From positions 1 through 34,307 of the forward strand of contig CBDUAL010000001.1 of NCBI GenBank assembly GCA_965365125.1: a stretch of 34,307 nt of DNA. Reading direction: 5' to 3'. The position numbers and the translations under genes were made by a program. Below, piece after piece: positions 10,227-29,246 of the stretch. The notes below the pieces were generated by a model. It made no database searches and had not been told where the DNA came from. It was given only the letters and a program-made list of their open reading frames with translations. How positions within the stretch are numbered: the stretch's first letter is position 1; each line of letters starts with the position of its first letter. This DNA is from an uncultured Lutibacter sp. (lineage in GTDB: Bacteria > Bacteroidota > Bacteroidia > Flavobacteriales > Flavobacteriaceae).

Positions 10227-10841
10227 ATGCACGTAGCCATTGCTGGAAATATTGGAGCAGGAAAAACCACATTAACAAAACTTTTAGCGAAACATTTTAG
10301 ATGGGAACCACATTATGAATCTGTGGCAGAAAACCCCTATTTAGATGATTTTTATGGCGAAATGGAACGTTGGTCGTTTAATTTACAAGTGTACTTTTTA
10401 AATAGTCGTTTTCGTCAAATTTTGGAGATTAGGGAAAGTGGTAAAAACATTATTCAGGATAGAACTATTTATGAAGATGCCCGAATATTTGCACCTAACC
10501 TGCACGCAATGGGATTAATGACCAATAGAGATTATAACAATTACGACTCTTTATTTGATTTAATGGAACGCTTGGTTTCACCACCAGATTTACTCATTTA
10601 TTTACGCGCATCTATTCCAACTTTGGTAGGGCAAATTCATAAAAGAGGGCGCGATTACGAAAACTCAATCAGCATTGATTATTTAAGTCGTTTAAACGAA
10701 CGCTATGAGGCTTGGATTACAAAATATAACAAAGGAAAATTATTAATTATTGATGTTGATAATTTAGATTTTGTTGACAATCAAGAAGATTTAGGTAGTA
10801 TTATTGATAAAATTGATGCTCAAATAAACGGGTTATTTTAA
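10227..10841 (+). CDS. Deoxynucleoside kinase
   Basis: P-loop AGNIGAGKTT, QDRTIYED, PDLLIYL, lid IHKRGRDYE. Confidence 0.93.
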   Translation: MHVAIAGNIGAGKTTLTKLLAKHFRWEPHYESVAENPYLDDFYGEMERWSFNLQVYFLNSRFRQILEIRESGKNIIQDRTIYEDARIFAPNLHAMGLMTNRDYNNYDSLFDLMERLVSPPDLLIYLRASIPTLVGQIHKRGRDYENSISIDYLSRLNERYEAWITKYNKGKLLIIDVDNLDFVDNQEDLGSIIDKIDAQINGLF

Positions 10842-23924: not shown

Positions 23925-23954
23925 AAAAAGGAGACCTCCAAGAAGCCTCCTTTT
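23923..23954. terminator. Bidirectional terminator between folA and the 197-aa gene
   Basis: Minus strand reads AAAAGGAGGCTTC-TTG-GAGGTCTCCTTTTTTT. Confidence 0.8.
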
Positions 23955-23988
23955 ACCAAACTAAACATAAATAATATATGAGATATTA

Positions 23989-24582
23989 TTATTTTTTATA
24001 CACTTTTTGTTCAAATGATTTACCTCCACTTTTCATAACAATAGAATAGGTTCCTTTTTCAAGTTTCATTAAATTTAATGTTTTACCTAAATTTATTTCC
24101 CCACTTAACTCTTCTTTATACAACATATTTAAATGACCGTCGTATAAAGAAATTGTGAAATTTTCATTATTCAATGCTACTTTTGAAATAAAAACTAAAT
24201 CACCTTCTTGCCTAACAGTAGGCTTATAGTAAATACTTTCCACCTTGTTATCAAATTCAATTCCTTCAGAAGTTACTTTAAAAGGCATTAAGTTAATTTT
24301 TGTATACCCTTCAATCTCAAAATAATAATCACCCGTTGGTAATGTCTTTAAATCATATTTTTTTGAGAAAAAATCTCCTTCAAATTTTTCAGTATATAAA
24401 GCTTCACCGTAAGCATCTCTTACGCTTATTGTTAAATCTCCATCTGAATTTTTCAATTTTAAATCAATTAACTTTGAGTCAATCACATTTACTTCAACAT
24501 TGTTATTAATGTTGGCTCCACTCATTACTATTGTAGTTAATACGGCTACAACTAGTAAACTCTTTTTAATTAAATTTTTCAT
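23989..24582 (-). CDS. Exported hypothetical protein with two tandem Ig-like domains resembling T9SS C-terminal/DUF3244-type domains
   Basis: Signal peptide; internal duplication ISVRDAYGEALY...YDLKTLPTGDYYFEI vs ISLYDGHLNMLY...LNLMKLEKGTYSIVM; ends KVYKK. Confidence 0.75.
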   Translation of the reverse strand: MKNLIKKSLLVVAVLTTIVMSGANINNNVEVNVIDSKLIDLKLKNSDGDLTISVRDAYGEALYTEKFEGDFFSKKYDLKTLPTGDYYFEIEGYTKINLMPFKVTSEGIEFDNKVESIYYKPTVRQEGDLVFISKVALNNENFTISLYDGHLNMLYKEELSGEINLGKTLNLMKLEKGTYSIVMKSGGKSFEQKVYKK

Positions 24583-24611
24583 AATTCAATAATTTATCAA
24601 TTAGTATGGTA

Positions 24612-24676
24612 CAAATGTATGATGGAATTTCAGGGTAAAACACTTCAAATTTTTCAAATTTATATCTTATTTTAAC
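24612..24676 (-). promoter_or_regulatory. Promoter (TACATTTG) plus 41-bp conserved upstream box, copy 1, candidate AraC operator
   Basis: -7 box 24612-19, 16-nt spacer, box 24636-76 that aligns without gaps to 25892-25932 and 26082-26122. Confidence 0.7.
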
Positions 24677-24777
24677 TGTTAATTTAATGTTAATAGTGTT
24701 TAAAGTTAATTTAGAACATAAAGTTGTGAAATCTAAATAGAATCATTCTTTTATTTATTTTTACTTTTGTAATAACT

Positions 24778-25665
24778 ATGGCAAATATGAAAAATACAAA
24801 GCCCGCATTTGAGAAAATAAACTTAGAGTTCGGAAACTCTTTGCTTATTAAGCAACATACTGAGATTGTTGAAAATAACTTACCTTTTTGGCATTTTCAT
24901 CCTGAACTTGAATTAGTTTATGTAAATAAAGCGAAAGGAAAAAGACATATTGGTAGTCACTTATCCTATTTTAATAACAGTCAGTTAATATTAATAGGTG
25001 CTAGTTTACCACATAGCGGTTTTACTGATAGGTTTACTTCAAATGGAGCTGAAACAATTATTCAATTTAAAGAAGAATTTTTAGGAGAAACCTTTTTTGA
25101 TATTCCTGAGATGCAAACTATTAAAACGTTGTTTGCAAGAGCAAAAAAGGGATTGTTGTTTCATCAAGAAGCAAAAAAAGAAATTGGACCAAAAATTGAA
25201 GCATTATTAAACTATCAAGGAATTGATAGAATTATATACTTTTTAGAGATATTAAAGGATCTTTCTTTATCTAAAGATTACTCCTTGTTAAATGTAGACG
25301 GATTTGCTTTTGAAGTAGAACCTCAGGACAATAATAAAATTGAAATTATTTTTCATCACGTAAGAAACAACTTCACCCAACAAATTACTTTAGATGAAAT
25401 TTCAGAAAAAGTAAGTATGACTGTACCTGCTTTTTGTAGATATTTTAAGAAGGTAACTGGAAAAACATTCACCCAGTTTGTAAATGAATTTAGAATTGTA
25501 CACGCAACTAAATTACTTGCAGAAAAACCAACAAGTATTACAGATATTTGTTTTGAAAGTGGTTTTAACAATTTTTCTCATTTCAACAAGCTTTTCAAAA
25601 AATTCACAGGAAAAAGTCCGTTGAAATACAGAAATGAAATGAAACAACTTGTTGAACAAAAATAA
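24778..25665 (+). CDS. AraC-family transcriptional regulator with N-terminal cupin domain
   Basis: WHFHPELEL cupin motif; double HTH MTVPAFCRYFKK...ICFESGFNNFSHFNKLFKKFTGKSP. TACTTTTG promoter box at 24762-69; true start may be 24787. Confidence 0.95.
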   Translation: MANMKNTKPAFEKINLEFGNSLLIKQHTEIVENNLPFWHFHPELELVYVNKAKGKRHIGSHLSYFNNSQLILIGASLPHSGFTDRFTSNGAETIIQFKEEFLGETFFDIPEMQTIKTLFARAKKGLLFHQEAKKEIGPKIEALLNYQGIDRIIYFLEILKDLSLSKDYSLLNVDGFAFEVEPQDNNKIEIIFHHVRNNFTQQITLDEISEKVSMTVPAFCRYFKKVTGKTFTQFVNEFRIVHATKLLAEKPTSITDICFESGFNNFSHFNKLFKKFTGKSPLKYRNEMKQLVEQK

Positions 25666-25702
25666 CTTATTGTATTAAAAAACACTTATTGCTTTATCGT
25701 AT

Positions 25703-25748
25703 AAAGTCATTGCATTTATTTGCTAGTGGCTTTTTTTTAGCAAAAATT
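25703..25748 (+). terminator. Probable araC terminator
   Basis: AAAGTCATTGCA / TGCTAGTGGCTTT imperfect stem followed by a T-run. Confidence 0.5.
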
Positions 25749-25774
25749 TCAATAAAACTGAGGCAAATTAAGCA

Positions 25775-25863
25775 CAAAAAAAATCACCTTTTAAAAAAAG
25801 GTGATTTCAAACTTAATTGATATCTAATAAATCTTTATTATCTATCTCATGTAAACCAAACAT
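25775..25863 (-). ncRNA. Candidate small RNA, copy A (~89 nt), containing a possible 16-aa ORF at 25813-25863
   Basis: TATATTTG box at 25868-75, internal hairpin, terminator AAATCACCTTTT / AAAAGGTGATTT with U-tail. Confidence 0.7.
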
Positions 25864-25867
25864 ATTA

Positions 25868-25932
25868 CAAATATACGACTCATTTAAGGTTTAAATAACA
25901 CCAAATTTTCCCTATTTATATTATATTTTAAC
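25868..25932 (-). promoter_or_regulatory. Promoter plus conserved 41-bp box, copy 2
   Basis: TATATTTG, 16-nt spacer, box 25892-25932. Confidence 0.7.
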
Positions 25933-25964
25933 CCTGTTCTATTAAGGAGCGTATTATATATAAA

Positions 25965-26053
25965 CAAAAAAAATCACCTCTTTTCAAGAGGTGATTTTAA
26001 ACTTCATTAATATCTAATAACCGCTTATTATCTATTAAATGTAAACCAAACAT
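25965..26053 (-). ncRNA. Candidate small RNA, copy B (~89 nt), containing a possible 18-aa ORF at 25997-26053
   Basis: TATATTTG box at 26058-65, internal hairpin, terminator AAATCACCTCTT / AAGAGGTGATTT with U-tail. Confidence 0.7.
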
Positions 26054-26057
26054 AAGT

Positions 26058-26122
26058 CAAATATATAGCCAATAGAACATTTAAATAACTCCATATTTTT
26101 CTTATTTCTATTTTATTTTAAC
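26058..26122 (-). promoter_or_regulatory. Promoter plus conserved 41-bp box, copy 3
   Basis: TATATTTG, 16-nt spacer, box 26082-26122. Confidence 0.7.
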
Positions 26123-28121: not shown

Positions 28122-29246
28122 ATGCAATTATTAAGAACCACATATTTATCCCTCGGAAGCAACCAAGGCAACAAACTTCAACATTTACAAAATGCTATTG
28201 ATTTAATTGCTGAAAACATAGGGAATGTTGTTAAAATAGCCTCCATTTATAAAACCGCTGCTTGGGGTTTTGAAAGTGATCATTTTTACAATACTTGCAT
28301 TCAAGTTGCAACAGGATTGAACCCTGAAAATTTATTGAAAAAAATTCATGAAATTGAATTTTCAATGGGAAGAATTCGTTCTTCGGAAGAAGGGTACAAA
28401 CCTAGAACTATTGACATTGATATATTACTTTTTGACAATGAAATTATTTTTTCGAAAGACTTAATTGTTCCGCATAAAGATATGTTGAACCGTAAATTTG
28501 TGATGGTTCCTTTGACTGAAATTGCTCCGAATTTAATACATCCTATTAACAAACAACGCATTGAGGTTTGTTTAATAAATTGCAATGACATTGGTGAAAT
28601 TGAGCTTACCAATTTACAACTAGTTAAACCTGTTAACCTTTCTGAAAAATACAATTACATTGCTATTGAAGGAAATATTGGCGCTGGCAAAACAACACTT
28701 TCTAAAATGCTTGCTGAAGATTTTAATGCTAAAGTTGTGTTGGAACGATTTGCCGACAACCCGTTTTTACCTAAATTTTACAAGGATAACGACCGGTATG
28801 CTTTTCCGTTAGAAATGAGCTTTTTAGCCGACAGGTATTCACAACTTACTGATGATTTAGCGCAATTTGATTTATTTAAAAACTTTATAATTTCAGATTA
28901 TTATATATTTAAATCGTTGATTTTTGCTCAAGTAACCTTACAAGAAGAAGAATATTTTTTATACCGAAAAATGTTTGACATTATGTATAAAGAAATTTCA
29001 AAGCCCGATTTATATATTTACTTGTACCAAAACACGCCCAGATTAATAGAAAATATTAAAAAACGAGGTAGAGAGTACGAACAAAATATTGAACCAGCTT
29101 ATTTAGATAAAATTCATCAAGGATATTCAACCTTTATTAAAACTGAAGAAAATTTAGACACACTCATAATTGACGTTTCAGACAAAGATTTTGTTCATAA
29201 TCCAGCAGATTATAAAGCTATTATTAAAGAAATTTTAGCCAAATAA
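28122..29246 (+). CDS. folK: HPPK (FolK) fused to a deoxynucleoside kinase domain
   Basis: YLSLGSN, PRTIDIDIL, LIVPH...RKFVMVPL; then IAIEGNIGAGKTT, PDLYIYL, IKKRGREYE. Confidence 0.93.
   Translation: MQLLRTTYLSLGSNQGNKLQHLQNAIDLIAENIGNVVKIASIYKTAAWGFESDHFYNTCIQVATGLNPENLLKKIHEIEFSMGRIRSSEEGYKPRTIDIDILLFDNEIIFSKDLIVPHKDMLNRKFVMVPLTEIAPNLIHPINKQRIEVCLINCNDIGEIELTNLQLVKPVNLSEKYNYIAIEGNIGAGKTTLSKMLAEDFNAKVVLERFADNPFLPKFYKDNDRYAFPLEMSFLADRYSQLTDDLAQFDLFKNFIISDYYIFKSLIFAQVTLQEEEYFLYRKMFDIMYKEISKPDLYIYLYQNTPRLIENIKKRGREYEQNIEPAYLDKIHQGYSTFIKTEENLDTLIIDVSDKDFVHNPADYKAIIKEILAK

Follow-up and report, generated by a model that had tools for sequence, protein, structure and literature searches.

The window analysed here, a stretch of 34,307 nucleotides from an uncultured Lutibacter sp. 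(assembly size 2.5 Mb, completeness 89.7%), possesses a compact locus flanked by dfrA and sppA, which consists of a gene for a 197-aa protein, a divergent araC gene, and two 190-bp tandem units oriented back towards araC. The 197-aa secreted-protein gene (23989..24582, minus strand) was assigned a signal peptide by inspection and encodes two Ig-like sandwiches (DUF3244 and T9SS type A sorting domain). It is followed by a 3' UTR module (23955..23990, minus strand), in which a predicted hairpin folds over the stop codon and precedes a single-stranded AUGUUUAGUUUGGU of the same motif class as that of the small RNAs described below, and then by an intrinsic terminator (23926..23954, minus strand), which was found by terminator scan and predicted fold. 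The -7 promoter box of the gene lies at 24612..24619 on the minus strand, with a predicted start at 24607, and the predicted operator box 1 at 24636..24676 on the same strand.

The araC gene (24778..25665, plus strand) encodes a protein of 295 aa, which carries a C-terminal HTH_18 domain (79.5 bits, cut-off 33.6) and, by alignment, a His-containing cupin-like N-terminal region; a sequence search of solved structures with this protein matched HTH domains only. Lutibacter agarilyticus has an identical protein (100%), and the one of L. holmesii shares 94% identity with it. Upstream of araC lies its own candidate operator box, the proximal half of which is weak, together with a -7 box at 24762-24769 (24705..24769 in all, plus strand), and the spacing between the two is 16 nt as elsewhere. 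A hairpin with a U tail is found 3' of araC (25703..25738, plus strand) as a predicted fold which is absent from the terminator scan list.

Each tandem unit runs about 90 nt from a predicted start to an intrinsic terminator, and both are read on the minus strand. Predicted small RNA 1 (25774..25863) has an invariant 5' stretch of 15 nt, a middle hairpin, and a terminator at 25780-25808, and box alignment places its -7 box at 25868-25875 and operator box 2 at 25892-25932 (25868..25932 together). Predicted small RNA 2 (25964..26053), which is identical to RNA 1 at 75 of 90 nt, ends in a terminator at 25970-25998, and its -7 box (26058-26065) and operator box 3 (26082-26122) were placed in the same way (26058..26122 together). 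The remainder of the window carries ordinary housekeeping genes; 10227-10841 encodes a stand-alone deoxynucleoside kinase, while 28122-29246 encodes an HPPK-deoxynucleoside kinase fusion.

An earlier note on this DNA had described boxes 1 to 3 as gapless 41-bp matches, each at exactly the same distance from a promoter box and separated from it by divergent spacers, and all of these observations were confirmed. The three 41-mers are identical in 30 of 41 columns, with pairwise identities of 32, 33, and 35. TAnATTTG stands exactly 16 nt downstream of each of them on the minus strand, while the 16-nt spacers have 6, 2, and 7 bases in common and, of the 30 bases flanking the boxes upstream, 7, 13, and 2 are shared. 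Boxes 2 and 3 sit within one 190-bp tandem duplication and are therefore not independent of each other. In leave-one-out runs, a matrix built from two copies placed the third box 3rd of 4,994,230 genome positions in all three cases. Moreover, when the whole genome was scanned with the spacing fixed, five sites stood apart from all other TAnnTTTG promoters: among 4,748 TAnnTTTG sites scored, these five reached 41.6 to 19.2 bits with a matrix that had them in its training set, and the next site scored -3.1 bits. A 76-site homologue matrix, which was built without the two extra sites, separates them too, giving 58, 49.5, and 48.8 bits for the three boxes, 46.8 bits for a remote site on contig C26, 26.3 bits for the araC promoter, and 14.0 bits for the next best site. 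The three box-preceded promoters described earlier are thus all real, but the genome total is five, the additions being the araC promoter itself and a glycogen-module gene elsewhere in the genome.

The 20-bp repeat that had been seen inside the box was not upheld, and conserved columns recur at 21 bp instead (G at 0/21, AA at 3-4/24-25, and G at 9/30). The profile correlation is 0.17 at 20 bp versus 0.26 at 21 bp, and the 20-bp period was dropped; at 0.26 the 21-bp direct repeat is itself loose, and inverted fits reach up to 0.35 over few columns. Sites of AraC-type HTCS regulators in Bacteroides, which were derived from comparative genomics, are direct repeats about 21 bp apart (21 bp in the motifs given by PMC3878776). 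Compared with these, the AraC described here is a soluble cupin-type protein, the two halves of its box are loosely similar, the box keeps a fixed phase to the -7 box, and the targets are not sugar-utilisation loci.

In Flavobacterium, TAnnTTTG was reported to occupy positions -12 to -5 (PMC9723704), so the box would span about -69 to -29, with its proximal half over the place of the -33 element. A sigma-70 promoter scan of the sequence stayed at chance level (16 sites versus 16.0 expected), which is anticipated for this phylum. A fixed phase to the core promoter, with the proximal half over the upstream element, is the geometry of an activator. The phase is kept among relatives, since in 67 of 76 box-only matches, drawn from 80 araC-anchored loci, the distance to TAnnTTTG is exactly 16 nt. 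Judged from the position of the box, activation by AraC, not repression, is quite probable.

Comparison across the Flavobacteriaceae, which the earlier note had suggested as a check, recovered the box with its spacing in about half of the genera searched. The strict pattern was found in 57 of 120 genera with 1 control match, and the loose pattern in 62 of 120 with 2 control matches. Furthermore, the strict pattern is present in 55 of 75 genera that have an araC orthologue versus 2 of 45 that lack one, and of these two genera one has a frameshifted orthologue and the other carries the box of a paralogue. This co-occurrence is partly trivial, because kin genomes are non-independent and most boxes adjoin araC. 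Nevertheless, the box follows the araC orthologue and a paralogue has a related box at the same position, which makes an AraC operator likely, and we consider it highly probable from these comparisons that the box is the operator of the adjacent AraC. That the putative operator is shared by the exported-protein gene and both small units is well supported. The earlier note had proposed that this AraC co-activates the exported protein and two small transcripts, the latter possibly supplying a repressive arm; the shared operator is backed by the cross-genome comparison, while the repressive arm is without a target.

The box might instead be read by another factor, such as an alternative sigma factor, a global regulator, or a paralogous AraC, with araC being merely one of the targets. 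The box in araC's own promoter would suit such an arrangement, as would genome G014, which has the remote box and in which no araC was found, and the half-site of the paralogue is similar, so that cross-talk is possible. However, the housekeeping TAnnTTTG box is present at all sites, both exceptions among the 45 orthologue-negative genera are explained, and next to the operon of the paralogue there is a separate variant of the box. We therefore regard another reader as very improbable.

The remote site, on contig C26 (G000:C26:9800-10200, L111), is a 46.8-bit box before a gene of 103 aa encoding a glycogen-recognition module (PF16561). This gene adjoins two predicted glycoside hydrolase genes, which were named by inspection. 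Counted over the 30 of 34 matches that were examined, the box precedes 14 of 15 close orthologues of the remote gene and 0 of 15 distant ones. Another set of close orthologues all had it (5 of 5). The distant glycogen-module genes perhaps form a different subgroup. Two genomes are exceptions, namely G014, with the box and no araC found, and G038, with araC and no box at the remote gene.

The related box of the paralogue was found at the same position in 11 of 21 off-type loci, where it precedes a DHDPS-family operon and lies divergent from another AraC. The remaining off-type loci include 2 orthologue loci, 4 remote members, and 4 unexplained ones. This paralogous AraC is 30-36% identical to that of the window and has a similar first recognition helix. 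Its box was observed at L081, L093, L103, L159, L166, L173, L291-L294, L296, and L310, and the operon of this cupin-AraC comprises DHDPS-family and aldehyde dehydrogenase-like genes, which we take to be a pathway of hydroxyproline catabolism, probably. The box of the paralogous AraC thus offers a second predictable regulon. As well, a weak box with the same geometry (6.8 bits) is present at G000:C5:23849 on the plus strand, divergent from a third AraC paralogue and near a predicted glycoside phosphorylase gene, which was named by inspection.

Several other genes were also seen behind a box. In two genera (L183, L309), it precedes a conserved 36-aa basic peptide beside a feoB-like gene, and short upstream frames like that of the peptide precede the secreted gene at L203 and L055. 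Additional remote genes with a box encode an MFS transporter in three genera (L199, L211, L300) and a protein of roughly 185 aa without a Pfam match in two genera (L307, L308). Box-driven genes for hydrophobic peptides of roughly 40-45 aa occur at L149, L176, L181, L184, and L189, and at L012 and L021, being located 3' of araC or replacing the secreted gene.

The family of the 197-aa protein is present in 57 of 80 araC loci, and the box lies within the locus in 52 of these 57. In some genomes the secreted gene forms a tandem array of three to five copies, and a separate box belongs to every one of them. The structure model (pLDDT 95) consists of two Ig-like sandwiches. The sorting-domain profile PF18962 matches at 33.6 bits, above the cut-off of 27, while TIGR04183 scores 20.6, below its cut-off of 23. 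SprA was also detected in the genome, and according to these profile matches the 197-aa protein is likely exported by type IX secretion. DUF3244 proteins and T9SS type A C-terminal domains (PDB 3sd2, 3d33, 5ag9, 8qb1, and 8glk) align to the second domain of the model, with Z scores of 11.3 (rmsd 4.3, 85 residues), 10.7 (2.1, 79), 10.0 (1.7, 65), 9.8, and 9.6; unrelated Ig folds also align to it, at Z 10.4 and about 9. Unlike those proteins, the 197-aa protein is made of two such domains alone, without a catalytic part. A Foldseek search with the model returned generic Ig pairs only, and a sequence search of solved structures with the secreted family returned nothing useful. In PMC10434189, DUF3244 genes appear in tables only.

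Both 90-nt units resemble conserved non-coding RNAs. Seven aligned copies, which come from five genomes, have a mean column identity of 87%, and their first 15 nt are invariant, while the four-fold sites of araC are 51-56% identical in three of the five genomes, a comparison which omits the pairs of L019 because they are out of register. The predicted RNA structure is kept in 98.9% of alignment cells. Compensatory changes on both sides of a pair were found in 4 terminator pairs and 1 middle-hairpin pair, so the covariation support of the middle hairpin is a single change. From this pattern of conservation, we consider that the units probably function as RNA.

Both twins have an AUG at the predicted +1, followed by open frames of 16 and 18 codons, and about 5.5% of Flavobacterium mRNAs were reported to be leaderless (PMC9723704), which raises the question of whether they are leaderless mRNAs for peptides of 16 and 18 residues. 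However, a 1-nt indel reduces the frame to 8 codons in 3 of 7 copies, which makes a peptide unlikely; the first 15 nt show no synonymous change, and a sister RNA type has no AUG start. This possibility is barely credible.

The twins are accessory to the locus, since a unit is present in 15 of 33 genus-level loci: 4 carry the RNA type of the window, 10 a second type, 1 a third type, and 18 no unit. An RNA model search found the type of the window in 5 of 61 genomes, all in one clade, and Rfam gave nothing near the gathering score in the region of the window or in 5 related loci. The second type, which is about 100 nt long and occupies the place of the twins, has a 5' hairpin, a conserved AUUUGGUUAAC, and a terminator; it was observed 3' of araC at L006-L009, L013-L015, L017, L022, and L024.

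The small RNAs resemble the end of the secreted gene. They start with AUGUUUGGUUU, and this 11-mer recurs in the 3' UTR of the secreted gene in L001, L026, and L091. More generally, a U/G-rich motif stands at the 3' end of 65 of 135 secreted genes, compared with 50 of 637 other ORFs. A second clade has a 22-nt element, which occurs in 20 of 120 genera; 31 of its 32 matches are exact, the control gave none, and it is always located beside a copy of the secreted gene or a box-driven unit. Among 13 genomes, the proteins of the host genes are 51% identical and their synonymous sites 48%, while the last 12 coding bases are 89% identical. This excess of 3'-end conservation over the coding region is strong in the second clade and weaker in the genus of the window. 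Descent of the RNAs from the 3' UTR therefore appears plain, by sequence comparison, in the second clade only; for the twins of the window, the shared 11-nt motif and the similar layout suggest the same origin.

The element stands solely at the end of the intact gene in 5 of 20 genomes, at the gene end plus an ORF-less unit in 8 of 20 (6 of them with their own box), and solely in an ORF-less or pseudogene unit with a box of 49-59 bits in 7 of 20, where the intact secreted genes of the fetched locus are without it. The putative stages of attached element, both forms together, pseudogene, and compact RNA are all visible in living genomes. Boxes of the ORF-less units score 48-59 bits. Retention of promoter and tail with loss of the protein is what selection on a trans-acting RNA would produce.

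The short units could also be inert relics of duplicated secreted-protein genes, which are alike because they were duplicated recently or underwent gene conversion. The secreted gene is indeed often found in tandem, with a box for each copy, stand-alone units of the second clade keep the last codons of the gene and some are plain pseudogenes, 18 of 33 loci have no unit at all, and the terminator loop is nearly invariant as well. Against inert remnants, the ORF-less units have retained boxes of the strength given above, and conservation lies far above that of synonymous sites, with compensatory changes present. Moreover, where the intact genes of the fetched locus are without the element (7 of 20 genomes), there is no local donor for conversion. 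We consider relics improbable and retain functional RNAs as the preferred reading.

What these RNAs may act on was approached through target searches. GibS and FopS were reported to repress by pairing near start codons (PMC7366714, PMC11697453), and the start regions of the present genome are A/C-rich, which fits U/G-rich seeds. The 5' seed of the RNAs matched 279 start regions, compared with a mean of 202 and a maximum of 356 over 12 shuffles, while the seed of the 3' UTR matched 499, compared with a maximum of 380 over 12 shuffles. A cross-genome pattern search for targets gave 27 matches versus 27 in the control; another gave 33 non-self matches versus 15 in the control, with no common gene in the 30 of 40 loci inspected. 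Likewise, no target gene common across genera emerged from duplex energy, k-mer enrichment, or cross-genome patterns. The repressive arm that had been proposed for the small transcripts is therefore unproven, because none of several searches brought out a shared target that exceeded the control. Targets of short, AU-rich seeds are difficult to predict, and we give repression by base pairing slightly less than an even chance.

Individual candidates were rejected. An envelope-stress reading, in which messages for outer-membrane proteins would be repressed, found no enrichment among exported-protein genes as defined by a crude signal-peptide rule. Feedback on the secreted gene or araC was rejected as well, their start regions ranking 1655 and 861 of 1973 for the RNA seed. 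In the glycogen-module gene, which ranks 59 of 1973, 4 of the 5 genomes that carry this RNA type show a seed complement; it was demoted to a weak lead, because the prospective case G163 failed and the RNA type is confined to one clade.

Another possibility is that the operator is real and that the RNAs, rather than pairing to mRNAs, offer decoy or landing sites to an RNA-binding protein which reads short U/G repeats. Relatives carry tandem arrays of 2 to 4 copies of the 5-nt unit, which would suit multivalent protein binding, and no conserved complementary target appeared in the searches. In addition, a few unrelated genes have a like motif ahead of their terminator (5 of 262 with the secreted gene counted; shuffle mean 0.86). 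However, a PF00076 RRM protein was not found in this 89.7% complete genome, while the B. thetaiotaomicron control was positive; the sRNAs of Bacteroidota characterised in PMC11697453 and PMC7366714 pair near start codons; and the seed of the 3' UTR exceeds all 12 shuffles. Decoys without mRNA pairing are therefore unlikely. The unrelated genes with the similar U/G motif before their terminators lie on contigs C23, C128, C19, and C193 of G000 and include fasciclin-like, Spy/CpxP-like, and two other genes, which were named by inspection.

The literature search, like the earlier note, which recognised no described system, found no description of the locus in open-access literature outside supplementary tables. 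Its layout is similar to CpxR/cpxP/CpxQ of Enterobacteriales as presented in PMC9438474, where a regulator drives an exported-protein gene, the 3' UTR of which is more conserved than the coding region and supplies a non-coding arm. In contrast to the CpxQ system, the regulator here is of the AraC type, the protein is of the DUF3244/T9SS-sorting type, and the predicted RNA also exists as a stand-alone gene that carries the operator a second time. Similar to FopS and GibS of Bacteroides (PMC11697453, PMC7366714), the predicted RNAs are short paralogues in Bacteroidota with a single-stranded seed and a terminator, and one member is 3' UTR-derived, a comparison that rests on features other than the R1 seed sequence. 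Compared with the FopS and GibS families as those papers describe them, the RNAs of the locus have no Rfam match and are gathered at one locus in 1 to 4 copies, whereas those families have 12-15 dispersed ones, an upstream operator is evident, and an RbpB-type RRM partner was not found in the 89.7% complete genome. The combination of a regulator, an exported protein, and a non-coding arm is thus known, while the freed, operator-bearing RNA copies are new.

According to the proposed mechanism, the cupin domain of AraC would sense a ligand, and the dimer would then bind two half-sites 21 bp apart, replace the -33 element, and activate sigma-A polymerase. A small regulon would be switched on, including the exported protein, RNA 1, RNA 2, araC, and the remote glycogen-module gene. 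The 197-aa protein would exit via type IX secretion, and the RNAs, related to the 3' UTR of the secreted gene, would form the non-coding arm, in which the exposed U/G-rich stretch would most likely base-pair with A/C-rich regions around translation starts and thereby reduce translation, in the manner of GibS and FopS. This explanation as a whole, which covers the sites, their family-wide conservation, the co-occurrence with araC, and a regulon with an exported protein and two putative non-coding RNAs, is the one that we moderately favour.

A further idea is advanced tentatively, namely that RNA, not protein, is the conserved core output of the regulon. On more than one occasion, duplication and ORF loss would have turned a regulatory element that arose in the 3' UTR of a type IX secreted protein into a gene of its own, with the AraC operator kept, and the element would act in trans without the classical sRNA chaperones, which PMC11697453 gives as absent from Bacteroidota, possibly by trapping a U/G-repeat-binding protein.

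By cross-genome comparison, the predicted operator is real and family-wide, and its reader is very likely the AraC of the window. The finding ties the uncharacterised DUF3244/T9SS protein family to a regulator, and it offers a natural series for the study of 3' UTRs as a source of small RNAs, in which one element is found both attached to the mRNA and independent under the same operator. Because cultured species carry the locus, tests of these predictions would be ordinary. Flavobacteriaceae are major degraders of marine polymers, and their transcription-factor sites and small RNAs are little charted; for an AraC that 75 of the 120 genera searched in this family possess, the locus provides a sharply defined operator and a regulon, both open to testing.
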